This document shows positions 2,393 to 36,760 of a stretch of 64,000 nt of DNA, piece after piece. Source of the DNA: an uncultured Acidimicrobiales bacterium (GTDB lineage Bacteria > Actinomycetota > Acidimicrobiia > Acidimicrobiales > Aldehydirespiratoraceae); the NCBI GenBank assembly GCA_958296055.1, contig CATQHS010000001.1, forward strand, positions 579,808 through 643,807, read 5' to 3'. The position numbers and the translations under genes were made by a program. The notes under the pieces are model-generated. The model saw only the letters and a list, made by a program, of their open reading frames with translations. It did not search any database and was not told where the DNA came from. The stretch's first letter is position 1, and every line of letters begins with the position of its first letter.

Positions 2393-2534
2393 CTCGGCCG
2401 GCGGGTCCTGTCACGGGGGCGTTTGCTCCCCTTCGGGCGCTCGTGTCGTCCCGGCCGGCGGGTCCTGTCACGGGGGCGGTCGTCGCCGCAAGCGGCGCCG
2501 ACGCTGACCCCCGTGCCACTCTCCGGCCTGGATC
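2393..2534 (-). repeat. 87-nt palindromic MITE/REP-like element, copy D (2448-2534), plus an extra right-arm fragment (2393-2421)
   Basis: The reverse complement matches the element at 33504-33590, 34262-34348 and 36674-36760 almost base for base. It lies about 110 bp upstream of HNH gene 1. Confidence 0.85.
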
Positions 2535-2554
2535 ACCGCGCCACCCCGACCGAC

Positions 2555-2641
2555 TCAAACTTTTTGAATATTTTTCAAATTTTTCTGAGATATTTCAGGT
2601 AATAGGGTGTGATTGTCTCACCCCTGCTATAGAGTGATCAT
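2555..2641 (+). promoter_or_regulatory. AT-rich putative promoter region of HNH gene 1 (possible leaderless start)
   Basis: A strikingly AT-rich stretch in a GC-rich genome. It holds the palindrome TTTGAA-N5-TTCAAA (about 2564-2580). A TATAGA hexamer at 2628-2633 lies 8 nt before ATG 2642. No convincing -35 was found. Confidence 0.3.
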
Positions 2642-4291
2642 ATGTTCACCGAGAAGGTCGAATGCGTCGAAGAGGGGCTGGCCTGGCTGCTGGAAGCGAC
2701 CCGGTCGGGGGAACTGCCGGTGGGGCGGCTCAAGGACCTAGTCGCGGTCAGCCGGGCGTGGGAGGCCAAGGTGACCGCGTTGCAGACCGACGCGGCTCGG
2801 TTGATCGCGGCCCGGGAGCGCCATGGCGATGGCGGGGCGTCGGTGCTGCGCTACCAGGCCGGGAAATCGAAGTCCCAGGCCCGCCGCAGCCTGGGCGCGG
2901 CGGAGGTCCTCGACGAGATGCCGGGGGTGCGCACCGCGGTCGACGCCGGGGAAGTGTCTTTGGCCAACGCCGAGCGCTTGGCGGATGCGGCCAAGCGCAC
3001 CAACCCTGAGGCGGTGGACTCCGCTTCTGATCTGTTGGCTCAGGCTAAGGAGCTGCCGCCGGATCAGTTCGCCCGCCAGGTCGGGGCCTGGACTCAGCGT
3101 CACCAATCCGATCATGGCCATGACGACTGGCTGCACAAACGCAGACGGCGGTACCTGAAGACTTGGAAGCAACAAGACGGCATGGTGCGCCTCGACGGCC
3201 TACTCGACCCCGAGACCGGCACCCGCATCTGCTCCCGCCTGCAAGACACCGCCGAACAACTGCGCCGCCAAGACCAACACGCAGCCCGCAACGGTGCCGG
3301 CCCGGACGCCGGCTATAGGCCAGCCGCCGACGGGGCGCTGGGCTCCGGCGAAAGACCCGCCATCGCCCAGACCAGCGGCCGTTCAGGCAACGGCGAGGGA
3401 TCCGCGGCTGCTGGCGGCTTCGACCTGGGCGAAGAATCCCGATCCTGGGACCAGCTCCGAGCCGACGCCCTCGACCTGCTCACTTCAGGCGCCGCCGACG
3501 ACGCCAAGGGCCGCGGCGGCTCCGGCGGGCGGCCTAAAGCTGAGGTCATCGTGGTGGCCGACATCGGCGTCCTCACCGGGGAGGACCCCTCAGGGCGCTG
3601 CGAGATACCCGGCACCGGGTCCGTGCCCCCCGCCGTGCTGCAGCGCATCGCCTGCGACGCCCAACTCGCCGGGATCTTGTTCAGCGAAGGCAAGCCGCTT
3701 TACCACGGGGCCAGGGTGCGCACCGCCACCACCAAACAATGGCGGGCCCTCATCGCCCGCGACCGCGGCTGCATCGGCTGCGGCGCCGAACCCAGCCGCT
3801 GCCAAGCCCACCACATCATCCCCTACGCCCAAACCCGCCGCACCGACATCGAAAACCTCGTCCTCGTCTGCTGGCGCTGCCACCACAACATCCACGACCA
3901 CCACTGGCGCATCACCCACCGACAAGGCAAACCCGCTCTCGAGCCGCCTGACCCCCTAGCCCCGCCCGATCCCGCCAACGGCCAACACCCCCACGACGCC
4001 AGGGATGCCCGCCAACCGCGACCAAGCCGCGGCCCGCAGCCAACCAGAACCCGAACCGACCCCAACCCGAACCGCTCTAGATCGGGCCCGGTCAGCGGCC
4101 CCGACCCGCCCCGGCCAACAACACCCGCCTGTTCTACACCTGAACCGCTTCAGATCGGGCCCGGCCAGCGGCCCCGACCCGCCCCGGCCAACAGCACCCG
4201 CCCTGTTCGACACCTGACCGCCGCCCTGTCAGCGGCGGGGATCGACCCGGCCCGACTCCGGCAACCAGCACCCGCCCTGTTCGACACCTGA
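2642..4291 (+). CDS. DUF222 / HNH endonuclease family protein (REP13E12-type), copy 1
   Basis: 549-aa ORF. C-terminal HNH motif CIGCGAEPSRCQAHHIIPY...NLVLVCWRCHHNIHDHHW. The N-terminal helical region is typical of DUF222. The true stop is uncertain because the 3' end lies in a tandem repeat carrying alternative stops. Confidence 0.8.
   Translation: MFTEKVECVEEGLAWLLEATRSGELPVGRLKDLVAVSRAWEAKVTALQTDAARLIAARERHGDGGASVLRYQAGKSKSQARRSLGAAEVLDEMPGVRTAVDAGEVSLANAERLADAAKRTNPEAVDSASDLLAQAKELPPDQFARQVGAWTQRHQSDHGHDDWLHKRRRRYLKTWKQQDGMVRLDGLLDPETGTRICSRLQDTAEQLRRQDQHAARNGAGPDAGYRPAADGALGSGERPAIAQTSGRSGNGEGSAAAGGFDLGEESRSWDQLRADALDLLTSGAADDAKGRGGSGGRPKAEVIVVADIGVLTGEDPSGRCEIPGTGSVPPAVLQRIACDAQLAGILFSEGKPLYHGARVRTATTKQWRALIARDRGCIGCGAEPSRCQAHHIIPYAQTRRTDIENLVLVCWRCHHNIHDHHWRITHRQGKPALEPPDPLAPPDPANGQHPHDARDARQPRPSRGPQPTRTRTDPNPNRSRSGPVSGPDPPRPTTPACSTPEPLQIGPGQRPRPAPANSTRPVRHLTAALSAAGIDPARLRQPAPALFDT
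4069..4290 (+). repeat. 73-74 bp tandem repeat x about 3 at the 3' end of HNH gene 1
   Basis: Copies at 4069-4141 and 4142-4215, with a diverged third copy at 4216-4290. Copies 2 and 3 end in CTGTTCGACACCTGA; copy 1 has the variant CTGTTCTACACCTGA. The hairpin CCGCCGC-N7-GCGGCGG at about 4219-4241 lies inside copy 3. Confidence 0.85.
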
Positions 4292-4418
4292 CCAGGTAAC
4301 CGGGGAAGCAACCGCCAATCCCCGTCACGCCAATGGACCCATCACCGGTTGTTCCACTCTCGGCCTGCGCCCCGGCGAGCCTTCACCGCATCGGCGGTCC
4401 AAGAAACGGCGGGTCCGT

Positions 4419-4844
4419 TTGGGCCGGAGGGCTCTCTTCGGGCACCATGGGGCGATGAGGCCGATGAAGGGGACGGTGGTTATCGCCGAGTACGCCGATT
4501 TCTTCGAGGCCAAGCTGGCCAAGGCCCGCCTGACCGAGGCCGGCTTCGAGTCGGCGGTGCTGTTCGATCCGGCCACCGAGGTGGCCCCCCAACACGTGAC
4601 CCACCGGACGGTGTTCATCGCGGTGGCTGAGACGGCGGCCGAGGAGGCCGCCGCCGTGTTGGCGGAGGTGCCCAAAGACGAGGAGGCCGAGCGCCTCGAC
4701 GCCGCCTTCCACCATCACCGATTCTCGGACCGCCCGGCCTGGATTCGCTACGCCACCTGGGCCCTCGTCATCGCCGTGCCCGGCCCCTTCGCCATCGCCG
4801 GCCTGTGGGTGCTGTGGCGGGTGCTGCAGGGCCTTTTCCCCTGA
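4419..4844 (+). CDS. hypothetical membrane-anchored protein; N-terminal domain resembles DUF2007-type putative signal-transducing proteins
   Basis: 141-aa ORF with one C-terminal TM segment (WALVIAVPGPFAIAGLWVLW). The start is uncertain; alternative ATGs are at 4455 and 4464. Confidence 0.4.
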   Translation: MGRRALFGHHGAMRPMKGTVVIAEYADFFEAKLAKARLTEAGFESAVLFDPATEVAPQHVTHRTVFIAVAETAAEEAAAVLAEVPKDEEAERLDAAFHHHRFSDRPAWIRYATWALVIAVPGPFAIAGLWVLWRVLQGLFP

Positions 4845-4873
4845 TCCCCCCCCCATTCAAAGGACTCGAACCC

Positions 4874-5776
4874 ATGCCCGACCCGTCACCGCCCAACTCA
4901 CCCCCCGGCCCGCTCTCTTCGACGGACCCGTCACCGCCCAACTCACCCCCCGCCGGCGGGCTGGGCGATCTGGTCAGCTACGCGGGCAAGAAGGTGGTGC
5001 TCACCGGCGGGGCCAGCGGTCTGGGGGCGGCCGCGGTCGAACTCCTGGCCCGCTCGGGCTGCACCGACCTGACCGTGCTCGACGTGAAGGAGCCGACCGG
5101 GCCGGCCACCCGCTTCATTCCCGCCGACATGAGCGACCCCGACTCGATAGACGCGGCCGCGGCCGAGATCGGCGGCGGCGTGGACGTGCTGTTCAACAAC
5201 GCCGGGGTGGCCGGGGTTCACGCCGGCGACTTCGTGCTCCGGGTCAACTACCTGGGCCTGCGCCGCCTCAGCGAGAGCCTGTTGCCCACCATGAACTCCG
5301 GCGGAGCCATAGTCAACACCGCTTCCATCATCGGCGCCGGCTGGCGCGATCGCCTGGACGTGATCAACGAGCTGATCGCCATCGAGGGCTGGGACGAGGC
5401 CGTCGAGTGGATGTCGGAGCACTCCGAGTTGGTGGAGGCGGCCCCGTACGACCTGTCCAAGGAGCTGGTCCAGGTGTGGACCATGCACAGCTCCCACCGC
5501 AGTCTCACCCGGTTCGGGGTGCGCACCAACAGCCTGTGCCCGGGGGTGCTCGACACTCCCCTGATCGTCGACTTCCGCCGCCAGGCCACCGAAAAGGTGA
5601 TCGACTGGGCCATCGAGCAGTCGGGCGGGATCATCAGCCCCGAGCACATGGCCGCGCCGCTGGTGTTCCTCGGCGCCGACGCGGCCGCGGCCCTCAACGG
5701 CGCCAACGTGGTGGCCGACCGCGGCTTCAGCGCCTGGATGACCACCGACCACGTGGACTACTCGGCCCTGGCCTGA
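4874..5776 (+). CDS. SDR family oxidoreductase
   Basis: Rossmann motif VVLTGGASGLG and NNAG. I moved the start to ATG 4874. The N-terminus carries a duplicated DPSPPNSPP, encoded by 28-bp cores at 4880-4907 and 4925-4952, 45 bp apart. Confidence 0.8.
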   Translation: MPDPSPPNSPPGPLSSTDPSPPNSPPAGGLGDLVSYAGKKVVLTGGASGLGAAAVELLARSGCTDLTVLDVKEPTGPATRFIPADMSDPDSIDAAAAEIGGGVDVLFNNAGVAGVHAGDFVLRVNYLGLRRLSESLLPTMNSGGAIVNTASIIGAGWRDRLDVINELIAIEGWDEAVEWMSEHSELVEAAPYDLSKELVQVWTMHSSHRSLTRFGVRTNSLCPGVLDTPLIVDFRRQATEKVIDWAIEQSGGIISPEHMAAPLVFLGADAAAALNGANVVADRGFSAWMTTDHVDYSALA

Positions 5777-5812
5777 CGGGCGAACACTGTCGAATACTGT
5801 GGCCTTCCCGGC

Positions 5813-5888
5813 GCTGGCCGCCTCGCCATGAACGCCGCAGCCCCGCCGACGCTGGCCCCCTCGCCATGAACGCCGCCGCCCCACCAGC
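5813..5888 (+). repeat. 38-bp tandem duplication spanning the helicase start codon
   Basis: Copy 1 is GCTGGCCGCCTCGCCATGAACGCCGCAGCCCCGCCGAC. Copy 2 is GCTGGCCCCCTCGCCATGAACGCCGCCGCCCCACCAGC. The copy-1 ATG (5828) opens a 13-codon ORF whose TGA (5867-5869) overlaps the real ATG at 5866. Confidence 0.9.
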
Positions 5889-8433
5889 GCTGGGCGAGCG
5901 CCTGCCGGGCGGCGGAGATCCCGACGAGCTGCTGGAGGCCTTCGAGCAGTGGGCGGCCGACGCGGGCTTCGAGCTCTACGAGCACCAGCAGGAGGCGGTG
6001 CTGCACCTGCTGGCCGACGACCACGTGGTGCTGGCCACCCCCACCGGGTCGGGCAAGTCGCTGGTGGCGATGGCCGGGATCTTCGCCGCGGTGGCCCGGG
6101 GTCTGAGGGCTGTCTACACCGCGCCGGTCAAGGCGCTGGTGAGCGAGAAGTTCTTCGAGCTGACCGCGGCCTTCGGCGCCGACCGGGTGGGCATGGTCAC
6201 CGGGGACGCCACCGTCAACGGCAACGCCCCGGTGATCGCCTGCACGGCCGAGATCCTGGCCAACCGGACCCTGAGGGCCGGCCCCGTCATCGACGTGGAT
6301 CTGGTGGTGATGGACGAGATCCACTACTACGGCGACCGGGACCGGGGCTGGGCCTGGCAGGTGCCGCTGCTGGAGTTGAACCGGCCCCAGTTCCTGCTCA
6401 TGTCGGCCACCCTGGGCGACACCGCCCGGATGCGGGCCGACCTTCAGGCTCGGACCGGGCGGGACGCCGCCCTGGTGGCGTCGGCCCAGCGGCCGGTGCC
6501 CCTGGACTTCGAGTACCGCGAAACCCCGCTGCACGTGTCGGTCGAGAAGCTGCTGTCCTCGGGAAAGGCGCCGGTCTACATCGTCCATTTCACCCAGAGG
6601 GAGGCCTCGGCCCGGGCCCAGAGCCTGACCAGCCTCAAAGTGCTGACCCCCGACGAGAAGACGGCCGTGCGCGAGGCGGTGGGCCGGTTCCGCTTTGACA
6701 CCCCCGTCGGCAAGGACCTGAGGCGCTTCGTGCTGGCCGGCATCGGCGTCCACCACGCCGGCCTGCTCCCCAAGTACCGGCTGCTGGTGGAGAAGCTGGC
6801 CCAGCAGGGCCTGCTCCGGCTGATATGCGGCACCGACACCCTGGGGGTGGGGGTGAACGTGCCCATCCGCACCGTGCTGTTCACCCAGCTCTTCAAGTAC
6901 GACGGGCGCCGGACTCGGGTGCTGTCGGTGCGGGACTTCCAGCAGATCGCGGGGCGGGCCGGACGCCGGGGCTTCGACGACGCCGGGAGCGTGTGGGTGC
7001 AGGCCCCCGAGCACGTCATCGAGAACAAGCGGGCCGAGGTGAAAGCAGCCGCAGCCGCCGGGGGCGGCAAGCGCCGCAAGCCGGTCCGCAAGAAGCCGCC
7101 CGAGCGGGGCTACGCCCACTACGACGCCGACACCCTGGCCCGGCTGGCGGCCGGGGCGCCCGAAACCCTGGAGTCGAGCTTCCGGGTGACCCACGCCATG
7201 ATGCTCAACGTCTTAGACCGGCCCGGCGACGGCTGTGTGGCCATGAAGCGGCTGCTGGTCGACAACCACGAGCCCCGGCCCCGCCAGCGCAACCACATCC
7301 GCCGGGCGGTGAGCGTGTTCCGGTCGCTGGTGGACGCCGGGATCGTCGAGGTGCTGGACGAGCCCGACGAACTGGGCCGCCCGGTGCGGGTCGGTCTCGA
7401 CCTCCAGGACGAGTTCCGGCTCAACCAGCCCCTGTCGCTGTTCGCGGTGGAGGCGGTGGGGGTGCTCGACCAAGACGCCGCCGACTACCACCTGCAGGTG
7501 CTCAGCCTGGTGGAGTCGATCCTCGAGGACCCGACGGTGGTGCTGATGGCCCAGCTCGACCGGATCAAGGACGAGCTGATGAGCCAGATGAAGGCCGAGG
7601 GCGTGGAGTACGAGGAGCGGATGAGCCGACTGGCCGAGGCGACCTGGCCCCGGCCCGAGGCCGGATTCATCGAGGGGGCCTTCGAGGTGTTCGCCCGCCA
7701 TCACCCCTGGGTGGGGCGGGACCGGCCCGGCCCCAAGTCGGTGGTGCGGGACATGCTCGAATGCGCCGACACCTTCAACCAGTACGTGGCCCGCTACGGC
7801 CTGAAGCGGTCGGAGGGGGTGCTGCTGCGCTACCTGTCGGAGTGCTACCGGACGCTGACCCAAACCGTGCCGCCCGAGGCGGTCACCGGCGAGCTCGAGG
7901 ACATCGCGGCCTGGCTGGGCGCGGTTGTCCGCCACGTCGACTCCAGCCTGCTGGACGAGTGGGAGCGGCTCCGACAACCCGAGGGGCCGGCGGCCGATTC
8001 GCCGTTCCCCGGCGACGGTGACGACGGGGGCGCCGGCGGCGACGGTGACGACGGGGGCGACGCCGACATCACCGCCGACCGGCGGGCCTTCGAGGTGATG
8101 GTCCGCAACGAGATGTTCGGCTGGGTGCAGTTGCTGGCCCGGCGGGCCCACGGCGAGCTGGCCGCCCGGTTGGCCGACTCCGGGGACTGGACTGAAGCCG
8201 ACTTGGACCGGGCCATGGCCCCCTACTGGGCCGAGCACGACGCCATCGGGATCGACGGCGAGGCCCGGTCCCGGCGTTGGGTCGACATCGACGACGGCAC
8301 CGGCCGGGTCGCCCAGAGGCTGCTCGACCCGGCCGGGCACCACGAATGGGCAGTCGAAGCCCGCATCGACCGGGCCGAATCCCGGACCCAGCAGCAGGCA
8401 GTGATGGCGCTGATCGGGATCAACCGCCTCTAG
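5866..8433 (+). CDS. DEAD/DEAH-box (Ski2-like) helicase with long C-terminal domain (DUF3516-type)
   Basis: Walker A ATPTGSGKS, DEIH box (VVMDEIHYYGD), SAT (LMSATLG) and motif VI QIAGRAGRRG. I set the start at ATG 5866 because the track ORF 5' part (5407-5865) overlaps the SDR gene out of frame. Confidence 0.9.
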   Translation: MNAAAPPALGERLPGGGDPDELLEAFEQWAADAGFELYEHQQEAVLHLLADDHVVLATPTGSGKSLVAMAGIFAAVARGLRAVYTAPVKALVSEKFFELTAAFGADRVGMVTGDATVNGNAPVIACTAEILANRTLRAGPVIDVDLVVMDEIHYYGDRDRGWAWQVPLLELNRPQFLLMSATLGDTARMRADLQARTGRDAALVASAQRPVPLDFEYRETPLHVSVEKLLSSGKAPVYIVHFTQREASARAQSLTSLKVLTPDEKTAVREAVGRFRFDTPVGKDLRRFVLAGIGVHHAGLLPKYRLLVEKLAQQGLLRLICGTDTLGVGVNVPIRTVLFTQLFKYDGRRTRVLSVRDFQQIAGRAGRRGFDDAGSVWVQAPEHVIENKRAEVKAAAAAGGGKRRKPVRKKPPERGYAHYDADTLARLAAGAPETLESSFRVTHAMMLNVLDRPGDGCVAMKRLLVDNHEPRPRQRNHIRRAVSVFRSLVDAGIVEVLDEPDELGRPVRVGLDLQDEFRLNQPLSLFAVEAVGVLDQDAADYHLQVLSLVESILEDPTVVLMAQLDRIKDELMSQMKAEGVEYEERMSRLAEATWPRPEAGFIEGAFEVFARHHPWVGRDRPGPKSVVRDMLECADTFNQYVARYGLKRSEGVLLRYLSECYRTLTQTVPPEAVTGELEDIAAWLGAVVRHVDSSLLDEWERLRQPEGPAADSPFPGDGDDGGAGGDGDDGGDADITADRRAFEVMVRNEMFGWVQLLARRAHGELAARLADSGDWTEADLDRAMAPYWAEHDAIGIDGEARSRRWVDIDDGTGRVAQRLLDPAGHHEWAVEARIDRAESRTQQQAVMALIGINRL

Positions 8434-8523
8434 CGCAGGCCCGCCCGCATCACGCGCTAACAACCTCACGCGAACTGACACCTAGCGCGGCCCGACCGCC
8501 TCTAGCGCAGGCCCGCGCCGGCT

Positions 8524-8585
8524 GGTTTTCTGATGTCCTACTAGGTTTTCTAACGCCCTACTTGGGTTTTTCTGAGCAAAGATTG
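8524..8585. repeat. three 20-21 bp AT-rich direct repeats (GGTTTT(T)CT[G/A]A...)
   Basis: Units at 8524-8543, 8544-8564 and 8565-8585. They lie between convergent genes, and the third unit merges into the terminator hairpin. Confidence 0.7.
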
Positions 8586-8615
8586 TCGCTATACGACAAC
8601 GCTTGCTCAGAAAAA
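8567..8615. terminator. bidirectional intrinsic terminator hairpin
   Basis: TTTTTCTGAGCAAAGATTGTCG / loop CTATA / CGACAACGCTTGCTCAGAAAAA. By hand pairing it has 6 + 13 bp around a 3-nt internal mismatch. The T5/A5 flanks give a U-tract on either strand. It sits between the helicase (+) and the repeat protein (-). Confidence 0.75.
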
Positions 8616-8640
8616 CTTGGGGGACTGGGGGACTGGGGGG

Positions 8641-9243
8641 TCAGTTCGGCTTGCCATCGTCGGCGTCGGCCGCGGAGCCGTCGGCGGTGTCGGCCGCGGA
8701 GTCGGCGGCGTCGGCACTAGCGGCGTCGTCGGTGCCCGCAGCGTCGTCGGTCGCAGCGTCATCGGCGGCAGCGGCGTCGGTCGCAGCGTCATCGGCGGCA
8801 GCGGCGTCGGTCGCAGCGGTGTCAGTCGCAACGTCGTCGGTTCGGTCCACCGCCCTGCGCACCACATCGGGGACGCGGCCCCCGGTGAGGTCGTCGATCT
8901 TGTCGACCACGGCCTCGGCCACGCCGCCGGCCTTGTCCCAGACCTCGCCCGCCACATCGCCAGCCACATGGGCGGCCCTGCCCGCGGCGTCGCCCGCCTT
9001 GTGGGCGGCCTTGCCCGCCGCGTCGCCGGCTTTGTGGGCCACGTCGCCGGCTTTGTCCCAGACCTCGCTGGCCACGTCTCCGGCCACATTGGCAGCCTTG
9101 CCCGCCACGTCTCCGGCCACATGGGCGGCCTTGCCCGCCACGTCTCCGGCCACATTGGCGGCCTTGCCCGCCTTGTTCCGAGCCTTGCCGGCCAGATCGC
9201 CCACCACGCCCTTGGCCTTGTTGGCGAAATCCGTGTCGCCCAT
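8641..9243 (-). CDS. repeat protein with 11-residue periodicity (LEA/apolipoprotein-like) and acidic D/A/T tail
   Basis: 200-aa ORF. Strong RBS (GGAGAGGAAGAC before the ATG). Repeats GKAANVAGDVA / GKAAHVAGDVA / SEVWDKAGDVA. The segment DKIDDLTGGRVPDVV is reminiscent of small actinobacterial stress/antitoxin-like (MT0933-type) proteins. Confidence 0.65.
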   Translation of the reverse strand: MGDTDFANKAKGVVGDLAGKARNKAGKAANVAGDVAGKAAHVAGDVAGKAANVAGDVASEVWDKAGDVAHKAGDAAGKAAHKAGDAAGRAAHVAGDVAGEVWDKAGGVAEAVVDKIDDLTGGRVPDVVRRAVDRTDDVATDTAATDAAAADDAATDAAAADDAATDDAAGTDDAASADAADSAADTADGSAADADDGKPN

Positions 9244-9337
9244 GTCTTCCTCTCCTATCGGTCGATTCTCTACCTGTTCGCAAAGCTAACGGGGCCGGAG
9301 CCCGATCAGTTCACTCCCCCTACGGCAAAGGGCCAGC

Positions 9338-12151: not shown

Positions 12152-12152
12152 C

Positions 12153-12905
12153 TCACTCCCTGCCAGCCGCTCCCCCGCCAGTTCGCCGTCCGGGCACCGG
12201 GCCCACTCGCTCCAGAATGGCCATCAAGCCCGGAAACCCCTCGATCGGCGACAGGCGGCGGTCCATGTACAGCAGCGCCCCGCCGATGAAAAGGAAGGAG
12301 ACGACGTAGTTCACCACCGACCGGGTCGCCAGGAACAGACTCACCCCCGAGTTGTTGAACAGCCAGATGTCCCACACCGACGAACCGATCTCATAGACCG
12401 CTATCAGCCAGGTGACGTTACGCAGGGTGGCCCTGAACCGGGGATCGGCCAGCACCGACTCGGGCAGATCGACGAACTTGCGGGCCGCCCACACCATGAA
12501 GGGCCGGCCGGCGAAGATGGTGACGGCCGCCGCCGCCCCGATCAGCATCTTGGTGCCTATGCCTATCCCGAAGTACACCGCCTCGGAGCTGACCCCGAAA
12601 TCAACCAGATCCCGCTCCGCTGCGATGGTGACGGCCGCCCTGACCAGCAGGTAGGCGGTTATGGCCGGCAGCCACTTCCCGATGGGCAGGCCCCGGGCCT
12701 TCCGGCTGTAGGCCGCCTTCACCGACCACACGGTGGAGGCCACCACCGCCGTCTCGGTGTTCACCAGGTTGTACAAGACGATGAACAGCACCACCGGCAT
12801 GAGCTGGTCGAGGCTGCCCCCGCCCCGGCGCCGCCGGTTCGTGTTGTCCGGCCGGCGGGTCCTGTCACCGGCGCGGACTTCGCCCGCGGGACTGGAGTCG
12901 GTCAC
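12153..12905 (-). CDS. membrane protein, resembles the DUF3159 family
   Basis: The hydrophobic core starts at GGGSLDQLMPVVLFIVLYNLVN. I chose the GTG at 12905, which overlaps the upstream TGA (GTGA); an alternative ATG is at 12800. The N-terminal tail contains a MITE right-arm fragment (12847-12868). Confidence 0.5.
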   Translation of the reverse strand: MTDSSPAGEVRAGDRTRRPDNTNRRRRGGGSLDQLMPVVLFIVLYNLVNTETAVVASTVWSVKAAYSRKARGLPIGKWLPAITAYLLVRAAVTIAAERDLVDFGVSSEAVYFGIGIGTKMLIGAAAAVTIFAGRPFMVWAARKFVDLPESVLADPRFRATLRNVTWLIAVYEIGSSVWDIWLFNNSGVSLFLATRSVVNYVVSFLFIGGALLYMDRRLSPIEGFPGLMAILERVGPVPGRRTGGGAAGRE

Positions 12906-19746: not shown

Positions 19747-19772
19747 CCCGCGTAGGGGCCGGGGCCGGAACC

Positions 19773-25942: not shown

Positions 25943-26007
25943 TGGAAACGCCATCCGCCAGTTTCCGAGCCATTTCCTCGACAGCATCTTCGTGGCATAG
26001 TTATGGC
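25943..26007 (+). promoter_or_regulatory. candidate operator/promoter of the mazEF-like pair
   Basis: Inverted repeat GGAAAC-N11-GTTTCC (25945-25967). A CATAGT hexamer (25996-26001) lies 6 nt before ATG 26008, so the transcript may be leaderless. Confidence 0.25.
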
Positions 26008-26244: not shown

Positions 26245-26570
26245 CCTCGCCGCCGGCTCGGGGGGAAGTGTGGTGGTGCGAGCTGGCCGACGCGGGGAGT
26301 CGTCCCGTGGTGGTCCTCAGCCGGGATGCCGCCATCGGTCGGCTCGGACGGACGATGGTGGCGCCCTGCACCACCACCATCCGCCGGCTTCCCAGCGAGG
26401 TGGTGCTCGAGCCCGGGGCGGACCCCGTGCCGAGGCTGTCGGCGGTGAACTTGGACTCAATCGAGAGCGTGTCGGTCAGCGTTCTGGTGGAGCGCCTCGG
26501 TCGGCTCGACTCCCAGCGGATGGGCCAGATCTGCCATGCCCTGGCCGTCGCCGCCGACTGTCTCGGCTGA
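26241..26570 (+). CDS. mazF: PemK/MazF family endoribonuclease toxin
   Basis: Family pattern RGEVWWCEL...RPVVVLSRD...[17 protein letters not shown]...VNLDSIESV. Confidence 0.8.
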
Positions 26571-26630
26571 GCAACCGGGCTGAGCGGCCCGGCTGAGCAG
26601 GCTCGGCGGAGGCGAACGGCGGGGCGAGGG

Positions 26631-27359: not shown

Positions 27360-27433
27360 CCTGCGCCCCTCCAGCAGCCCTCGCCCCGGCGGCTCAGCGG
27401 GCCCATGAGGCTCAGCAGGGCGGGCCAGTTCGG

Positions 27434-28366: not shown

Positions 28367-28421
28367 CGGCGGCCCTCCAGCCGCGGCTCTCAGCCACCGG
28401 CGGGGTTGCTAGCAACCGCGC

Positions 28422-29732: not shown

Positions 29733-29820
29733 GTTTGTCTCCTCGCTTTCACGCCGCTCGTTTTCTTCGAGCGTTCATTCCTTGAGTTCTCGTTTTCTTT
29801 GGCTGTCGTTCTTTGAGCGC

Positions 29821-30381
29821 TCATGTTTCGAGTTCGCTCATTCCCTCGAGTTCGGGGGCCAGCCGGGTCACCAAGGCGACGCCGTCCTTGACCCTCACCA
29901 CGATGACCCGGGCGCCCACCTCGATCTCGCCGTTCTCGCCCTCGTCCACCGGGGCTGCGGTCATCCGGGCCTGCGAGCCGCCCACGTCGAGCACGATCCG
30001 GCCCCGGTGCAGGGCCGAGACGGGCAGGGCCACCCGGGCGATGGTCCCCTCCAGTTCCTTGTCGGTCACCTCGCTGGAGACCTCGGTGCGGCGGAGCCAG
30101 GCGAACACGGTGCTGTTGAGGACGCCGGCCACGACGCCGATGGCCAGGGCCAAGCCCAGGGCGGTCACCGGCCCGGTGCCGGCCCAGCGGGTCACCAGCC
30201 CGGTGACGCCGAAGAAGGTGAGCACGAAGGCCAGGGTGCTCAAGGGGATGACCGACATCACCCCGCCGCCGCTGCCGTCGGCGTCGGCGTCGCCGCCCAG
30301 ATCGGCGTCTCCCCCGCTGAAGACGAACCACAGCAGCAGGGGGGCTCCGGCCGCCAGAGCGAAGATGAACAGCCCGTTCAC
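29821..30381 (-). CDS. NfeD family membrane protein
   Basis: Three or four TM spans plus a C-terminal OB-like segment (GTIARVALPV...GRIVLDVGG...ARVIVVRV). It lies upstream of the flotillin gene, the classic nfeD-flotillin pairing. Confidence 0.7.
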   Translation of the reverse strand: MNGLFIFALAAGAPLLLWFVFSGGDADLGGDADADGSGGGVMSVIPLSTLAFVLTFFGVTGLVTRWAGTGPVTALGLALAIGVVAGVLNSTVFAWLRRTEVSSEVTDKELEGTIARVALPVSALHRGRIVLDVGGSQARMTAAPVDEGENGEIEVGARVIVVRVKDGVALVTRLAPELEGMSELET

Positions 30382-30521
30382 CCCGGTGAAGCTAGTGTCT
30401 GGCCGTGGCTTCTGCTCCCGCTCTGGCCGCGGTAGCGCCGTGAGTTCTCCGGGGCCTTTCAGCCTGGTTCTGGCCGAGGCGGTGCCGTGAGCTTCAGCCC
30501 GGCTTTGGCCGAGGCGGCCCC

Positions 30522-31484
30522 GTGAGCTTCAGCCCCGCTTTCTTCGCGGTCAGGGAGCGGGTCCGCAACTGGGGGCGGTGGGGGCCCGACGACCGGCTCG
30601 GCACCTTGAACCTGATCGACGACACGGCAGTGGCCCGGGCCGCCTCGCTGGTGCGGACCGGGCGGCGGGTGTCGTGCGCCCTGGACCTCAAGCACGAGGG
30701 CGGGGTGCAGATCGGGCAGATGCACGGCCGGATAAACCCGCTGCACGCCATGGTCAAGATCGACAGCCCCGACCTCGGCGACCCCGACGGAAGGGGCCTG
30801 GTGCCCCATTTCTCCGACGACATCGTGACCATGCCCCTGCAGGCCGCCACTCACTGGGACGGTTTGTCCCACGTCAGCTACGAGCACACCCTCTACAACG
30901 GGGTGTCGGTCGACACCGTCACCGCGGTGGGCGGGGCCACCGTGCTGGGCATCGAGAACGTCCGCTGGCTGACCGGGCGGGGGGTGTTGCTGGACGTGCC
31001 CGCCGCCCGGGGGGTGGAGCGGCTGCCCAGCGACTGCGAGATCACCGGGGCCGACCTCGACGATGCGGCCCGGTTCGGCGGGGTCCAGATGCGTCCGGGC
31101 GACATCGTGCTGCTGCGGACCGGGCGGATGCAGGTGTTTCGCGAGATGGGCGCGGCCGAGTACGTCACCGGCCCCGACCGCGACGGCACCAGCCCCGGGC
31201 CGGGCCTGGAGGCGGTGGAGTGGTTCCACGGCCACGACGTGGCCGCCGTGGCCAACGACACCTACATCTTCGAGGCGTTCCCCGGCCCTAGCTGGGACGA
31301 CGCCCTGGCCGTGCACTGCCTGCACGTGGTGGACATGGGCTTGACCCAGGGCCAGAACTGGGACTTAGAGGAGCTGTCGGCGGCGTGCGCGGAGGTGGGC
31401 CGCTACGAGTTCCTGCTGGCCGCCAACCCGGAGCCCTTCGTGGGCGGCTGCGGCTCCCCGGTCAACCCGGTGGTGATCTTCTAG
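30522..31484 (+). CDS. cyclase family protein (kynurenine formamidase-like)
   Basis: The N-terminal motif NWGRWGPDDRLGTLN and the metal motif ATHWDGLSH are present. The GTG start lies inside a 35-bp tandem duplication (30472-30541). Confidence 0.8.
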   Translation: MSFSPAFFAVRERVRNWGRWGPDDRLGTLNLIDDTAVARAASLVRTGRRVSCALDLKHEGGVQIGQMHGRINPLHAMVKIDSPDLGDPDGRGLVPHFSDDIVTMPLQAATHWDGLSHVSYEHTLYNGVSVDTVTAVGGATVLGIENVRWLTGRGVLLDVPAARGVERLPSDCEITGADLDDAARFGGVQMRPGDIVLLRTGRMQVFREMGAAEYVTGPDRDGTSPGPGLEAVEWFHGHDVAAVANDTYIFEAFPGPSWDDALAVHCLHVVDMGLTQGQNWDLEELSAACAEVGRYEFLLAANPEPFVGGCGSPVNPVVIF

Positions 31485-31852
31485 CCAGAGGTTGGCGGCG
31501 CGCCGGCGGCGGGGGCGGGTTCGGCTGCGGCGCCGACTCGAATCTCGACCGCCGTCTCCTCGTTCCCGTCGTCGAAGGTGGCCACAAGTTGAAGCTCGGC
31601 CCCGAGTTGGCGGAGGTACCGGCGCAGCCGCGACACGCTCATGTCCTCGGCCCGCTCCAGTTGCGAAACCGCGGCCTGGCTGACGCCGAGCCGCGCCGCC
31701 AGGGCATCTTGCGACCATTCGAGGCGTTTGCGCAGCTCGTAGAGGCCGATCTCGGCCAGCGTCTCCTTGCGGATCTCGGCCAGCAGTTCGGCCGCGCCGG
31801 GGCGAGCCAGGAGCTGCTCGCGTAGGATGTTGAAGTTCTTGGTGCTGGGCAT
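31481..31852 (-). CDS. XRE-family HTH antitoxin (HigA-like)
   Basis: HTH segment LRKRLEWSQDALAARLGVSQAAVSQLER. It lies downstream of the toxin gene, which is the HigBA gene order. Confidence 0.75.
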   Translation of the reverse strand: MPSTKNFNILREQLLARPGAAELLAEIRKETLAEIGLYELRKRLEWSQDALAARLGVSQAAVSQLERAEDMSVSRLRRYLRQLGAELQLVATFDDGNEETAVEIRVGAAAEPAPAAGAPPTSG

Positions 31853-31854
31853 CG

Positions 31855-32235
31855 TTACAGCAATCCTTCCTCAGCCAGTTCTCGGAGGTAAAGGTCGTAG
31901 AGATCGTCGGCCGCCGGAACAGCCCAGTCGTACCAGGCACCCCAATTCCCCGACTTGTCGCCGCCGAGCAGCAAGATGGCGTGGCGACGAGGATCGAACG
32001 CAAACAGCACTCGCAGGGCTCCTGCCCTCGACGAAGACGCTCTCAGTTCTTTCATGTTCTTGTGACGAGACGACTTGACGGTGCCGACGCTCGGTCTCCT
32101 GAGGCTCGGGCCCCGCTCGACAAGCAGTTCGACCCGGTCAGCCACGGCGGCCTGCTGTTCCACCGTCAGCGTGTCCCACCAGTCGCCGAACTTGTCGGTG
32201 AACTCGACCTCCCACACTGGCCTAGTATAAACCAC
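31855..32235 (-). CDS. RelE/ParE superfamily toxin (HigB / Gp49-like)
   Basis: 126 aa with the family pattern ...KELRASSSRAGALRVLFAFDPRRHAILLLGGDKSG. Confidence 0.7.
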   Translation of the reverse strand: MVYTRPVWEVEFTDKFGDWWDTLTVEQQAAVADRVELLVERGPSLRRPSVGTVKSSRHKNMKELRASSSRAGALRVLFAFDPRRHAILLLGGDKSGNWGAWYDWAVPAADDLYDLYLRELAEEGLL

Positions 32236-32334
32236 AGCTTTTGAAGCCGCGGCTTGCTGAAGCCGGGCGGGGACGGATGTCTCTGGGGCTGTCGCAGCCA
32301 GGCTCTACCATCACGCGGGTAGCTGGCCGTGGGG

Positions 32335-32489
32335 ATGCCTCGCGGGTCCTCGCCATCGGACAGCAGGCGAGCGACGCGTTGCGAGACCACTTCGGTTTTG
32401 CCGGAGCCGGCCGCCGCGATGATCTGGAGGTGACCGCCGCGGTGCTGGACCGCGGCCAGTGCGTCACCTTCCAAGATCGGCACGTCCAT
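32335..32489 (-). pseudogene. UvrD/Rep-type helicase N-terminal remnant
   Basis: MDVPILEGDALAAVQHRGGHLQIIAAAGSGKTEVVSQRVARLLSDGEDPRGI contains a Walker A motif in UvrD context. By my hand translation, similarity stops after about 50 residues in all three frames. The remnant abuts the HigB start. Confidence 0.6.
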
Positions 32490-32771
32490 CTGTTCATTGT
32501 GCCGGGCGGGCTCCCCCGCCCGCCGCCAGCCTTCAACTTTTCGAACGAGTGTTGCGACTGTCACAGGGGTCTGATACATTGTCGTTACCGGTCATGGAAC
32601 CTCATCACGGGATCGTGTGAGGTTCTGGCACTTCCCCCGGACCGGTGAATCGCCGGCTCCCGGCTGGCCCCGAGTCCGACCCGCCCCTTTCGGGGTCGAC
32701 TGAAGGAAGTGCGTCGTGTTCGAAGCATTCAAGACCTTCACCAAAGCGCTGAACTCCTCTGACGTGGGGGG

Positions 32772-34154
32772 TTGGGCCGGGCCGGGCTGGACGAGGCCAC
32801 CGGCTGGGTCAAACGGGCCCGCTCGGCCCTCGACGCTTACGAGGCCCGGCTGTTGACCGCCGCGAACCGGGCCTTCGACGGGGGCGCGGCCGGGGCCGAG
32901 CTGATCCGGACCGCGGGCGGCTGCTCCCAGCGCGAGGCCCGCCGCCGGGCCCGACGAGCCGAGGCCCTGGCCGAGATGCCCGCGGTGGCCGGCGCGCTGG
33001 CCGAGGGCGACATCACCTCCGAGCACGCCGACGCCCTGGTTCAGGCCGCCAAAGCCACCTCAACGGAGACGGTGGACACCGACCCGGCCCTGCTGGAAAG
33101 GGCCAAGTCGCTGCCCGCCGACCTAGCCGCCCGGGAGGTCACCGACTGGACCACCCGCCGCCAGTCCGCCGAGGACCGCGAGGAGAAGTTCCGCCGCCAG
33201 CGGGCCATGCGCAGCCACCGAATGTGGACCGACGGCGACGGCATGTTCAACTCCCGCGCCCGCCTCGACCCCGTAACCGGCGCCGGCGTCAAAGCCGCCA
33301 TCGACGACGCCGCCAACCGCCTCTACCAAGCCGACGGAGGCCGAGACGGAGGCGACAAGATCCGCACCTGGGACCAGCGCAACGCCGACGCCTTCACCGC
33401 CGCCCTAGGCCTGATCCCCACCCCCGGCGTCGACGGCGATGCCGACACCAAGTCTTCATCCCGCCGCCGAGCCGGTGAGCAAGAACTCAAGCCTGGGGCC
33501 GGTGCGCCAGGCCGGGGGGTGGCACGGGGGCCAGCGTCGGCGCCGCTCGCGGCGACGACCGCCCCCGTGACAGGACCCGCCGGCCGGGGCAAGCCCCCCA
33601 GCCTGCGCAACCAGATCCTCGTCATCGCCCACACCGACGCCATCACCGCCACCGGCACCGACGCCCGCTGCGAAATCCCCGGCACCGGCCCCATACCCCG
33701 ATCCGAATTAGAGCGCCTCGCCTGCGACTCAGACCTGTTCGGAATCCTCTTCAACGGCGACGGCCTGCCCCTATGGCACGGCCGGCGGACCAGAACCGTC
33801 TCACCCCAACAATGGCGAACCCTCGCCGCCCGAGACCGAGGCTGCGTCCTCTGCGGCGCCACCCCCTCCTACTGCCACGCCCACCACATCATCGCCTGGA
33901 CCCCGCCCGCCGAAGGCCCCACCGACATCGACAACCTGGTACTGGTCTGCAACCGCCACCACCACCACATCCACCAGCACAACCTCACCCTCACCCGAAC
34001 CCCCGACGGCAGTTGGGCTGCCCACACCCCCGACCAGCAACGAGCCCCCCGCCCCGCCCAACGACCTGCCGGCCGAGCCCCCGCCAGCCCCAACGCCCGC
34101 ATCCCGCCAGCCCGGGCAGCCAAATCACCGGCAAGCATCCGAGCCGGACCCTGA
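32772..34154 (+). CDS. DUF222 / HNH endonuclease family protein (REP13E12-type), copy 2; probably frameshifted at the 5' end and carrying an in-frame MITE
   Basis: HNH motif CVLCGATPSYCHAHHIIAW...NLVLVCNRHHHHIHQHN. An SD-like GAAGGAAG and GTG 32716 open a different frame (VFEAFKTFTKALNSSDVGG) that meets this ORF at the G6 run 32766-32771. Confidence 0.7.
   Translation: MGRAGLDEATGWVKRARSALDAYEARLLTAANRAFDGGAAGAELIRTAGGCSQREARRRARRAEALAEMPAVAGALAEGDITSEHADALVQAAKATSTETVDTDPALLERAKSLPADLAAREVTDWTTRRQSAEDREEKFRRQRAMRSHRMWTDGDGMFNSRARLDPVTGAGVKAAIDDAANRLYQADGGRDGGDKIRTWDQRNADAFTAALGLIPTPGVDGDADTKSSSRRRAGEQELKPGAGAPGRGVARGPASAPLAATTAPVTGPAGRGKPPSLRNQILVIAHTDAITATGTDARCEIPGTGPIPRSELERLACDSDLFGILFNGDGLPLWHGRRTRTVSPQQWRTLAARDRGCVLCGATPSYCHAHHIIAWTPPAEGPTDIDNLVLVCNRHHHHIHQHNLTLTRTPDGSWAAHTPDQQRAPRPAQRPAGRAPASPNARIPPARAAKSPASIRAGP
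33504..33590 (+). repeat. 87-nt palindromic MITE/REP-like element, copy A (inside HNH gene 2, in frame)
   Basis: It begins on a codon boundary and is 29 codons long. It translates to APGRGVARGPASAPLAATTAPVTGPAGRG. Confidence 0.85.
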
Positions 34155-34261
34155 CCAGCCCGGCCGGGAGGGGGGCTTGGTGGCCGGCGCACCAGGCCGG
34201 GAGGTGGCACAAGCTGGTGATCCCAGCCGGGACCACGGCGATCCTGGACTTGATGGCCAGC

Positions 34262-34348
34262 GCGCCAGGCCGGGGGGTGGCACGGGGGTCAGCGTCGGCG
34301 CCGCTTGCGGCGACGACCGCCCCCGTGACAGGACCCGCCGGCCGGGAC
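34262..34348 (+). repeat. 87-nt palindromic MITE/REP-like element, copy B
   Basis: GCGCCAGGCCGGGGGGTGGCACGGGGGTCAGCGTCGGCGCCGCTTGCGGCGACGACCGCCCCCGTGACAGGACCCGCCGGCCGGGAC. A left-arm fragment lies at 34187-34210. Confidence 0.85.
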
Positions 34349-34481
34349 AAACGAGAACGGCCTGAGAGTCTGCCGGCCGGGACGAACGGCAATAACTGCC
34401 CGCGACATGACCCCAGCCGGAGGAAGCAACGCTCGGGCGGGACGGGCAAAACGGCCACCCCGCGGGGTTTAGGCTTGGCCC

Positions 34482-35459
34482 ATGAGTAGCAGCGCCGTCG
34501 CGGCCGCCGTTTGCGCCGATCCGGTGGCTCTGAACCTGTGGCACCCGGTCGCCGCGGTGGTCGAGACCGCCCCCGGTGCGGTGCATGAGACCCGGCTGCT
34601 CGAAGAGGCCCTGTCCTACGCGGTCACCACCGACGGAGGAGTCCACGCCTGGCGGTCGGCGCCGTCTCTGGCGCCGGGCACGGAGTTCGACGCCGCCTTG
34701 GTCCCCGAGCCCTTGCAGGCCATCAACCGGTTCGGCTACCTCTGGACCAGTTACGGCTCGCCGCCCGACGATCTCTTCGATCTGCCTGAGTTCCACGAGC
34801 CCGACCGTCGCAACGTGTGGGGTGGCACCATCGGAGTCCACACTTCCGCGCCCCGGGCGGTGGAGAACTTCCTGGACATGGGCCACTTCCCCTATGTCCA
34901 CACCGGCTACCTGGGCATCGAACCCCACACCGAGGTAGCCGACTACGACGTAGACCTGAGCCCGGACGGCTCGGAGGTCGTCGCCACCCGCTGCCGGTTC
35001 TTCCAGCCGATGGGCGCCGTCAACGCTTCGGGCGGGATGATGGTGGGGTACGTGTACCGGGTACCCCACCCCTACTGCGCCGTCCTCTACAAGTCGAACT
35101 CCGTCGACGAGTCCCGAAACGACGCCATAACCATCTTTTGCCAGCCCATCGACGAGGTGACCATCCGGGCCCACATGCTGCTGTCGATGCTTGACGACGC
35201 TAGCGATGACCGGGCCATCAAGCGGTTCCAGTTGCTCATCTTCGGCCAAGACAAGCCCATCCTCGAGAACCAGCACCCCCGGCGCCTGCCCTTGGAGCCC
35301 CGGGCCGAGACGCCAATCCGCTCCGACAAAATGTCGATCGCCTACCGGCGCTGGCTGGCCGATATGGGCCTTACCTACGGCGTCACCCCGCCCGAGGGAT
35401 CCCGAGGGCGGGTGGACGACGGGTGCCGCGACCCCGGGCCGTCACCGACCCAGAAATGA
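34482..35459 (+). CDS. Rieske-oxygenase alpha-subunit-like protein lacking the Rieske Cys/His ligands
   Basis: The catalytic-domain motif ENFLDMGHFPYVH (His-x4-His) is present. The N-terminal about 100 aa have the Rieske-like layout (LWHPVAAV...) but no CxH...CxxH. Confidence 0.6.
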   Translation: MSSSAVAAAVCADPVALNLWHPVAAVVETAPGAVHETRLLEEALSYAVTTDGGVHAWRSAPSLAPGTEFDAALVPEPLQAINRFGYLWTSYGSPPDDLFDLPEFHEPDRRNVWGGTIGVHTSAPRAVENFLDMGHFPYVHTGYLGIEPHTEVADYDVDLSPDGSEVVATRCRFFQPMGAVNASGGMMVGYVYRVPHPYCAVLYKSNSVDESRNDAITIFCQPIDEVTIRAHMLLSMLDDASDDRAIKRFQLLIFGQDKPILENQHPRRLPLEPRAETPIRSDKMSIAYRRWLADMGLTYGVTPPEGSRGRVDDGCRDPGPSPTQK

Positions 35460-36460
35460 AGGCTCAGACCAAAGCCACAACGAAGGCCCTGGCCACACCG
35501 TCGGGTTTGGGGGCCGCGGGTCTGGAAGTGGCCGTGGTGGGCAGCGCCAACCTGGATCTGGTGGTAGCGGTGGATGCCGTCCCGGTGGCGGGTCAGACGG
35601 TGCTGGGCGGCGACTTGGCCCGCATCCCCGGCGGCAAGGGGGCCAACCAGGCCGTGGCCGCGGCCCGGCTGGGCCGGAGCGTGGCCATGGTCGGGCGGGT
35701 CGGCGACGACGAGGCCGGGGCCGTGCTGCGGGAGGCGCTGGCCGGGGCCGGGGTGAACGTCGCCTACCTGCTGACCGCGTCCGGCGTCCCCAGCGGGGTG
35801 GCGCTCATCGCGGTGGGAGCCGATGGCGACAACGCCATCGTGGTCAGCCCCGGCGCCAACGGCCGGGTGGGTGTCGGCGACGTGATCGCGGCCGAGGCGG
35901 TCCTGGGCCGGGCCAAGGTGACCTTGCTCCAGCTCGAGATCCCCCTCGACGCGGTGATCGCCGCGGCGGCGGCCTCGGGCGGGACGGTGGTGCTGAACCC
36001 GGCCCCGGCCACTCCCCTGCCGGGCGGCCTGCTCGACCGCATCGACGTGCTGGTCCCCAACCAGACCGAGTTGGCCGCGCTGACCGGCCACGACGGGCCG
36101 GTGGACGCCGAGACGGCCGCCGACCTGGCCCGCCAGCTCCCGACAGCCGCCGTGGTCGTCACCCTGGGGGCCGGGGGGGCGCTGGTGGTGGCCGGGGCCC
36201 ATGTGACCCTGGTGCCGGCCCCGCCGGTAGCACCAGTTGACACCACCGCGGCTGGCGACGCCTTCTGCGGCGCCTTGGCCGACGCGCTGGTGGGCGGCGC
36301 CGACCTGACGGAGGCGGCGAACTGGGCAGTGCGGGTGGGCGCGGCCGCCACCCTGCGACCCGGCGCCCAGCCCTCGCTGCCCACCCAATCCGAGGTCGAG
36401 AGCCTGCTGCCCGATGCCGCCAGCGGCGACCCCGCCCCCAATCGGCACCTGGACCTTTGA
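35456..36460 (+). CDS. rbsK: ribokinase
   Basis: Motifs GGKGANQAVAAARLG and DTTAAGDAFCGAL. ATG 35456 overlaps the upstream TGA (ATGA). Confidence 0.8.
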   Translation: MKAQTKATTKALATPSGLGAAGLEVAVVGSANLDLVVAVDAVPVAGQTVLGGDLARIPGGKGANQAVAAARLGRSVAMVGRVGDDEAGAVLREALAGAGVNVAYLLTASGVPSGVALIAVGADGDNAIVVSPGANGRVGVGDVIAAEAVLGRAKVTLLQLEIPLDAVIAAAAASGGTVVLNPAPATPLPGGLLDRIDVLVPNQTELAALTGHDGPVDAETAADLARQLPTAAVVVTLGAGGALVVAGAHVTLVPAPPVAPVDTTAAGDAFCGALADALVGGADLTEAANWAVRVGAAATLRPGAQPSLPTQSEVESLLPDAASGDPAPNRHLDL

Positions 36461-36673
36461 TTTGATCTAGACCCGATCTAGACCCGAGAGCCGACAGCAG
36501 GGTCATACAGATCACAGGCCGCGCTACTCCCAGCTCGGGTTGCGATCAACTCGCCAACGACCACGCTGATGTCGACGACCTCCGACGGGCTCGCCGTGCC
36601 GCGTAATGGTAGCCACGACATCAATCGTGTCTGGGGTGTCGGATCACCGGCAAGACCTGGGCCCGGAGCCAGC

Positions 36674-36760
36674 GCGCCAGGCCGGGGGGTGGCACGGGGG
36701 TTAGCGTCGGCGCCGCTTGCGGCGACGACCGCCCCCGTGACAGGACCCGCCGGCCGGGAC
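36674..36760 (+). repeat. 87-nt palindromic MITE/REP-like element, copy C
   Basis: It lies between the ribokinase and nucleoside hydrolase genes. Reiterated GGCCGGGACGAACCGCCGACC-like end fragments follow it up to about 36840. Confidence 0.85.

Follow-up and report, generated by a model that had tools for sequence, protein, structure and literature searches.

Short palindromic repeats scattered through bacterial genomes have been described in several forms, of which the best known are the REP and REPIN elements of Proteobacteria with their RAYT transposases (PMC3116915, PMC3337134). The Rickettsia palindromic elements (RPE) are in-frame insertions that are translated as extra peptide segments in tolerant regions of proteins, and MITEs (miniature transposable elements with inverted repeats), such as Correia/NEMIS, ERIC, RUP and BOX, are short dispersed repeats that are non-coding, have inverted ends and are often transcribed together with their neighbours (both in PMC10969869). 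The REP13E12-type family of DUF222-HNH genes, which will concern us here, is mentioned for Mycobacterium tuberculosis in PMC10589994. We describe an 87-nt imperfect palindrome from a stretch of 64,000 nt of an uncultured Acidimicrobiales bacterium (contig CATQHS010000001.1, positions 579,808 to 643,807; hereafter the window, in whose coordinates all positions are given, labels of the form L### denoting comparison loci), where it lies at two DUF222-HNH genes and elsewhere. The sequence belongs to a large family of interspersed imperfect palindromes of the Acidimicrobiia, with a longer-tipped form in the Solirubrobacterales, and we think it probable that this is a DNA repeat family of the REP/RPE kind, built on a hairpin module of the type recognized by proteins, which in the lineage of the window also serves, as inverted copies, to end DUF222-HNH units.

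The family shares with the REP/REPIN-RAYT systems its short imperfect palindromes, their extragenic position, copy numbers of tens to hundreds, long vertical persistence and a cognate gene flanked by inverted copies; the REP repeat is thought to be recognized as a folded single strand, which we count as a further likeness. It differs in that the flanked gene is a multicopy DUF222-HNH nuclease gene rather than a single-copy gene of the Y1/HUH type, in that the element is one continuous hairpin with a variable tip rather than a REPIN doublet and has no 5' GTAG in its consensus, and in its host phylum, which is Actinomycetota rather than Proteobacteria. Among the loci examined, only DUF222-HNH genes were bracketed by inverted copies and no RAYT (Y1/HUH) gene was; no genome-wide search for RAYT genes was made. 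Like the RPE, the present elements are also inserted in frame in coding genes, but their sequence and host are unrelated, most copies are intergenic, and the in-frame copies keep their hairpin by compensatory changes. Their small size, dispersal and terminal inverted repeats recall MITEs, from which they appear to differ in that we found neither target-site duplications nor a parent insertion sequence sharing only the terminal repeats, whole elements ending the HNH unit instead. Nor, a few tandem arrays excepted, are they tandem units like those of the mycobacterial MIRU.

Integron attC sites combine conserved outer and inner stems with an unpaired asymmetric spacer, a terminal structure of variable length and one strand that folds better than the other. 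The present family resembles them in its folded imperfect palindrome, unpaired spacer and variable tip, and at one locus (L106) a toxin-antitoxin pair lies between two direct copies; however, there is no GTTRRRY/RYYYAAC core (the ends are GGCCGG/CCGGCC), no arrays adjoin an integrase, and the copies are dispersed singly. No recombinase-like cluster stood out among the recurrent neighbouring genes, of which only the HNH cluster was annotated, and integrons are, to our knowledge, essentially absent from the Actinomycetota. The REP13E12 family of M. tuberculosis, for which Gordon et al. (1999) is reportedly the source, consists likewise of dispersed multicopy genes for the same two-domain protein (PF02720 and PF01844), and we know of no hairpin terminal repeats or solo derivatives described for it. 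A brief literature search found no comparable repeat described for the Acidimicrobiia or Solirubrobacterales.

In the window, matching with the 87-mer located forward copies at 33504-33590, 34262-34348 and 36674-36760 with three, no and one mismatches, respectively, and gave no match in 100 shuffles. A covariance model made from copies in relatives, R1, scored four places at 70-77 bits (33509-33589+, 34267-34347+, 36679-36759+ and 2449-2529-) and the rest of the window at no more than 21 bits. The copy at 33504-33590 (70.5 bits) lies within the linker of the second DUF222-HNH gene (HNH-B; 32772-34154, forward strand, 460 aa), where it is read in frame as exactly 29 codons and translated as GAPGRGVARGPASAPLAATTAPVTGPAGRG; that at 34262-34348 (75.2 bits) begins 107 nt past the stop codon of the same gene (34154) and is its downstream, direct end copy. 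The reverse-strand copy at 2448-2534 (72.5 bits), in which the left arm is more diverged, ends 107 nt ahead of the ATG at 2642 of the first gene (HNH-A; 2642-4291, forward strand, 549 aa) and forms the left end of the HNH-A unit. The fourth, at 36674-36760 (77.5 bits), is a solo copy about 100 nt upstream of an inosine-uridine nucleoside hydrolase gene (36862-37809).

Partial copies accompany these. The right-arm 26-mer has six matches in the window, against none expected, including fragments on the reverse strand at 2394-2419 and 12848-12873 with one to two mismatches. The former (one mismatch) is a right arm only, about 30 nt outside the full inverted copy, and this outer arm with its spacer is also present in L075 and L101; the latter belongs to a decayed remnant at 12848-12884 (-) that retains the right arm and half of the apical hairpin. 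A left-arm-only fragment, GCACCAGGCCGGGAGGTGGCAC, read from the sequence at 34187-34210 (+), upstream of the copy at 34262, was missed by a 24-mer search allowing up to three mismatches because only some 19 nt of the arm is kept. The right-end motif GCCGGCCGGGACGAAC occurs six times in the window against 0.55 expected, and motif searching placed reiterations of it at 34372-34387 (+) and, in a pair, at 36790-36805 and 36819-36834 (+). The four full copies of the original prediction are borne out, three by matching and all four by the model, its right-arm fragments and reiterated end motifs stand far above chance, and its observation that three of the four full copies lie within about 110 bp of, or inside, the HNH genes is correct.

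Beyond the window, we scanned the right-arm 22-mer against a collection of species-representative genomes in 8-kb blocks and found it in at least 96 blocks from at least 38 assemblies (counts that are lower bounds) of Acidimicrobiia and Solirubrobacterales, including Ca. Aldehydirespirator spp., metagenome-assembled genomes (MAGs) with isolate names that suggest a sponge origin and several Solirubrobacterales. At least 33 of the blocks lie on the 3.74-Mb chromosome OZ241886.1, which has 85-93% nucleotide identity with the genome of the window in syntenic blocks, and at least 13 on assembly CBDBEL01; R1 gave 113 matches at E < 0.01 in 752 kb of matching blocks. In Logan contigs of the four sequencing runs that best hold the window, probably its source sample, the contigs break at the repeats and the summed depth of repeat words exceeds flanking depth about 30 times over, a value in keeping with tens of copies in this genome. 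Searches with 4227 Rfam covariance models gave no match at gathering score in the window, and only chance-level matches (E of about 1 or more), none of them on the copies, in 33400-36900. The 22-mer had no match among viral contigs, and thus there is no sign of a phage vector. The proposal of an independent, interspersed palindromic element of REP/MITE type is therefore upheld, since copies lie in unrelated contexts in these 38 or more assemblies and keep their hairpin by compensatory changes; confinement to HNH loci with homologous flanks, looked for across the relatives, clearly fails. On OZ241886.1 the orientation of the copies shifts weakly near 1.98 Mb (5+/14- before, 13+/8- after), from which we draw no conclusion.

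A folding check agreed with the long imperfect hairpin that had been predicted, every window copy folding stably. Folded as single-stranded DNA, the four copies reach -33 to -42 kcal/mol on the + strand (z of -4.4 to -5.0, with none of 200 shuffles as stable) and a weaker -30 kcal/mol on the - strand (z of -2.0); across the family, the preferred strand is the more stable by about 7 kcal/mol in 73 of 74 copies. The alignments define a basal stem of 10 bp, GGCCGG(G)GGGT / ACCC(G)CCGGCC, an invariant asymmetric internal loop in which GG stands opposite ACAGG, and a second stem, CACGGGGG / CCCCCGTG; the two arms are complementary to each other over about 20 bp, as terminal inverted repeats. The apical hairpin falls into at least four subfamilies of wholly different sequence, each self-complementary, and the tip ranges from absent to about 50 nt. 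Forms of about 50 nt that lack the tip were found at L030 586-634, at L101 217-266 and, as a variant, among the Logan contigs; the copies of the Solirubrobacterales keep the basal module within 90-104 nt and have long tips, giving a range of about 50-105 nt for the family. Compensatory changes are seen at the column pair 28/55, where 21 sequences have G-C and 13 have C-G, in the basal stem of L092 (GGCTGG with CCAGCC), and in one 77-nt subfamily with double changes at three pairs, 98.4% of cells paired and a covariation matched by none of 500 shuffles.

The arms are also reiterated in about 12-15% of copies, in a polar fashion: extra left arms lie upstream of 12 of 99 copies and extra right arms downstream of 15 of 99, always in the same orientation and each duplicated with a few bases of flank, the opposite orientation occurring 0-1 times. 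Three further observations concern the form of the element. At L027 3236-3516, between convergent genes, three full copies stand in tandem with a period of 100 nt. At L044 6506-6588 there is a perfectly symmetric chimera, consisting of the reverse complement of a right arm with flank, an apical hairpin, and a right arm with flank, which may have been left behind when the two inverted copies at the ends of a unit recombined. In the Solirubrobacterales form, the long tip contains a loop whose sequence, GAGAACGGAC…GCCCGCCCGCAGG, is conserved across unrelated contexts (L018, L034, L035, L057, L067, L070 and L079, from Solirubrobacterales and 'Actinomycetes' MAGs), which suggests a second recognized module.

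Both HNH open reading frames (ORFs) carry an N-terminal PF02720 and a C-terminal PF01844 domain above the Pfam cut-offs (1.5e-16 and 4e-9 for HNH-A, 2.6e-22 and 1.9e-4 for HNH-B), have the CxxC...HH...N...H residues, and are about 38% identical to each other. Paralogues of HNH-A at about 70-84% identity number at least seven on the 3,273,504-bp contig of the window and at least eight on OZ241886.1. The GC content at third codon positions (GC3) is 0.81 for HNH-A and 0.86 for HNH-B, compared with 0.88-0.97 for their neighbours; both genes failed a GC3-based gene filter, and the low values fit foreign or fast-evolving genes. For HNH-A, no relative was found in the PDB by sequence, and an AlphaFold2 model (mean pLDDT of 49.9, pTM of 0.29) was too poor for a fold search.

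The association between these genes and the repeat was seen in two ways. Seven of the 33 repeat-bearing blocks of OZ241886.1 carry a DUF222-HNH gene and, because the blocks amount to about 7% of that chromosome, even 12-20 such genes per genome would predict only about one; conversely, when HNH genes were fetched irrespective of the repeat, five of six carried copies, at both ends in L098, at both ends and in frame in L104, downstream only in L097, and upstream only in L108 and L101. Over all the cases seen, the orientation of the flanking copies is fixed, the upstream copy being inverted in 8 of 8 cases and the downstream copy direct in 7 of 7. Moreover, paralogous units at unrelated loci (the window, L039, L075 and L024) are laid out alike: outermost is a right arm, followed by a full copy in inverted orientation, an AT-rich leader, the ORF and, last, a copy in direct orientation. 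An inverted copy, in a short form without the apical hairpin, also lies upstream of the HNH-A-type gene in the orthologous L101. The HNH genes were the sole recurrent, non-syntenic, mobile-element-like cluster in the neighbourhoods of the repeat. The original prediction held that the element is found preferentially next to or inside HNH genes; in the lineage of the window the association is real, on the strength of the block and gene counts and of the fixed orientation, but the preference does not extend to the family, most of whose copies are solo and far from any HNH gene, at the 3' ends of genes or inside other genes such as nuoG.

The HNH-A unit, repeats included, extends approximately from 2338 to 4445 (about 2.1 kb) when set against an empty orthologous site. 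In L099 and L100, 46 nt separate an ABC-ATPase gene from a gene for a 126-aa protein, with neither HNH gene nor repeat between them; in L102 and L103 the same site holds 189 nt with right-arm remnants only; and in the window and L101 it is filled by the whole unit. The leader of the unit (2555-2641, +) contains the inverted repeat GGGTGTGATTGTCTCACCC and has TAGAGT a few bases before the ATG; it is AT-rich in a genome of 70% GC, is conserved in four paralogous or orthologous units, and looks like a promoter/operator for a leaderless mRNA. At the other end of the gene, three tandem repeats of 73-74 nt (4065-4276) form the 3' end of the ORF, lengthening it to 549 aa, and replace the direct repeat copy found there in the paralogous units L039 and L075. 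The HNH-A paralogue in L097 (1-3961) lacks an upstream repeat copy and begins 108 nt past a gene of PLD/SNF2 helicase type.

We regard these results as best accounted for by a REP/RPE-like DNA repeat, and on balance we expect this account to hold. It is present in tens of copies per genome, is tolerated mainly just past stop codons and occasionally in frame in proteins, and is retained at orthologous sites across species. Its arms stay identical, as we think through a trans-acting factor reading the folded module, through gene conversion, or through both, while the tip is swapped or lost. In the lineage of the window, the multicopy, selfish-looking DUF222-HNH genes of REP13E12 type carry the repeat as inverted terminal copies with their right arms outward, and gene and repeat would thus travel as one unit of about 2 kb, inserting into intergenic DNA, often beside resident solo copies. 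How this would happen, including the HNH-assisted spread suggested in the original prediction, is a more tentative matter. Some protein presumably recognizes the folded strand, and the HNH nuclease may be that protein, in which case units would spread by nuclease-induced breaks repaired from repeat-flanked donors. In its fullest form, which we put forward as possible but rather doubtful, the DUF222-HNH nucleases would recognize the hairpin as folded DNA and cleave there; cutting at solo or terminal copies would allow the repeat-bounded gene to be copied into the break, with solo copies multiplied or homogenized as a by-product, so that the HNH nuclease, by recognizing and cutting the folded element, would move units or solo copies. 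The partnership would then parallel REP-RAYT or attC-IntI, with an HNH nuclease as its enzyme, a comparison that we make with the same reserve.

Several observations weigh against such an account. One of the six HNH genes, L107, has no copy nearby, and neither CBDBEL01 (13 blocks, about 18 copies) nor any of the Solirubrobacterales blocks has an HNH gene within 8 kb. The HNH unit of L104 adjoins a solo copy that exists without an HNH gene in three relatives, and the co-location could therefore reflect a preference for an insertion site rather than shared ends. When the flanks of 82 copies were aligned at the element ends, there were no direct repeats and no target-site duplication; comparisons at the empty site and of L105 with L106 gave no clean insertion boundary, the latter two being too diverged to define ends; and no fresh presence/absence polymorphism of solo copies was found between close relatives. 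The 22-nt stretch is identical across two classes, a conservation that is unusual in selfish DNA and that a functional RNA or DNA site would explain just as well. Finally, there is a bias in orientation: the right arm points to the nearest stop codon, typically 10-40 nt away, in 25 cases against 10.

The last two points, the invariance across classes and the bias in orientation, make a structured RNA a serious rival. The element would then be an RNA module conserved across the Acidimicrobiia and Thermoleophilia, a 3'-untranslated-region stabilizer or processing site, or a protein-binding RNA, used at many transcripts, which the HNH mRNAs merely carry. It is in keeping with this that the stems and internal loop are invariant across the two classes, that the distal stem covaries, and that one strand folds better than the other. 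Among 88 copies, 74 were intergenic and 7 fell within ORFs; after orthologues are collapsed, 52 independent sites include 15 between convergent, 20 between co-directional and 4 between divergent genes and 2 in ORFs, and 35 of the 39 classifiable intergenic sites follow the 3' end of at least one gene, typically 10-40 nt past the stop codon. The copies that lie within the nuo operon or within ORFs are necessarily transcribed: the NuoG of six genomes has an in-frame copy near its C-terminus (…EAGGWHGGKEWRRSRRQAAPVTGPAGRE…), the hairpin being kept by compensatory changes (L040 5660-5740, and also L037, L006, L086, L089 and L066), and further copies lie at the nuoI/nuoJ junction in L021, L022 and L066.

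At co-directional sites, however, the element occurs in both orientations relative to transcription (13 versus 7), and the better-folding + strand is usually the non-transcribed one. The tandem arrays (as in L027), polar arm reiterations, decayed fragments and inverted pairs around mobile-looking genes are the behaviour of a DNA repeat; at orthologous sites the tip has been exchanged or deleted; and the unit matches no Rfam family and has no promoter or T-run termination signal. We consider an RNA module rather unlikely, although it is the strongest of the alternatives to a DNA repeat of the REP/RPE kind.

Comparison of orthologous sites bears on a second alternative, a DNA site domesticated by the host, bound, for example, by a nucleoid-associated protein, gyrase or a recombinase (compare the BIME/REP sequences bound by gyrase and IHF in E. 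coli) and both spread and homogenized by gene conversion, with HNH genes landing in the same permissive spacers. All four window sites in comparable syntenic blocks are also occupied in OZ241886.1. There, a full copy (L043 4803-4884) stands at the site orthologous to the fragment at 12848, which shows that the site in the window has suffered a deletion. The orthologue of the copy within HNH-B is reduced to a right-arm remnant (L061), and a paralogue, L052, has a copy at the same position of the HNH protein. The orthologue of the copy at 34262 (L061 6379-6458) has a different apical hairpin. The site at 36674 carries a copy in four genomes (the window, L104, L105 and L106), with identical arms in barely alignable flanks and, in L106, another type of apical hairpin. 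Identical arms at orthologous sites, with tips exchanged or lost, indicate that selection or gene conversion keeps the arms constant.

The spacer upstream of the nucleoside hydrolase gene (36461-36861 in the window) is also a hot spot. In the window it has the solo repeat only; in L106 (5084-6093) and L105 (2061-2920) it holds a PIN_2 toxin gene and an 80-aa partner, bracketed in L106 by two direct repeat copies; and in L104 (4131-6470) it holds a DUF222-HNH unit. A direct repeat, GATCTAGACCCGATCTAGACCCGA, lies in the same spacer at 36466-36490, right after the ribokinase stop codon, and a related sequence, TCTAGATCGGGCCCGG, occurs inside the 73-nt repeats at 4065-4276.

A host site would agree with the perfect conservation of the arms where flanks diverge, with a distribution across genomes that looks long-lived and mostly vertical, and with a spacer that, depending on the genome, is vacant or has a PIN toxin-antitoxin pair or an HNH gene in it. 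Permissive spacers do not explain why the orientation around HNH genes is the same in 15 of 15 cases, nor why paralogous units at unrelated loci carry copies; the empty site lacks both gene and repeat, and no candidate binding protein is known. We therefore judge a domesticated host site unlikely, and more so than a structured RNA.

That the repeats are duplicated intrinsic transcription terminators (I-shaped, without a U-tract), a role that the original prediction had raised as an alternative, is improbable. They are very stable GC hairpins just past stop codons, and 15 of the 39 sites lie between convergent genes, an enrichment that terminators would account for. Neither arm, however, is followed by a T-run, and copies lie in frame in nuoG, at the nuoI-nuoJ junction of an essential operon, and 1-21 nt upstream of start codons, where termination would be harmful; this placement in operons and ORFs, in both orientations, together with the missing T-run, argues against such a role. 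Segmental duplication of an HNH region, suggested by the three of four window copies at HNH genes that are themselves paralogues, can be rejected as having a negligible chance of being right, because more than 100 copies from at least 38 assemblies have flanks that are unrelated, most without an HNH gene in the same 8-kb block.

We also considered whether the HNH proteins belong to IscB/HEARO systems (RuvC and HNH domains with an omega RNA of about 300 nt); this was rejected, as the match to NF040563 is confined to the HNH motif and reaches 21-27 bits, where the cut-off is 175, and there was no HEARO hit. Elsewhere in the window, short-period tandem repeats at 8884-9222, 56276-56331, 56984-57205 and 62181-62299 (periods of 33, 14, 42-48 and 15 nt, respectively) probably lie in coding sequences.

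REP-like repeats and their enzymes have been well studied in Proteobacteria, and the family described here is a case from the Acidimicrobiia and Solirubrobacterales. With the in-frame copies in NuoG, it provides a second clear case, after Rickettsia, of palindromic repeats in frame in conserved proteins. As the repeats break short-read assemblies of these organisms, they also matter for the quality of MAGs. DUF222-HNH genes of the 13E12 type are common and multicopy in Actinomycetota, including mycobacteria, and a unit with hairpin ends, solo derivatives and an empty site makes their spread testable at the bench. The inverted repeat copies that bracket these selfish-looking, multicopy genes hint at how such genes move and, if the HNH nuclease does cleave at the hairpin, this would give a first mechanism by which the widespread REP13E12/DUF222-HNH genes of Actinomycetota are mobilized.

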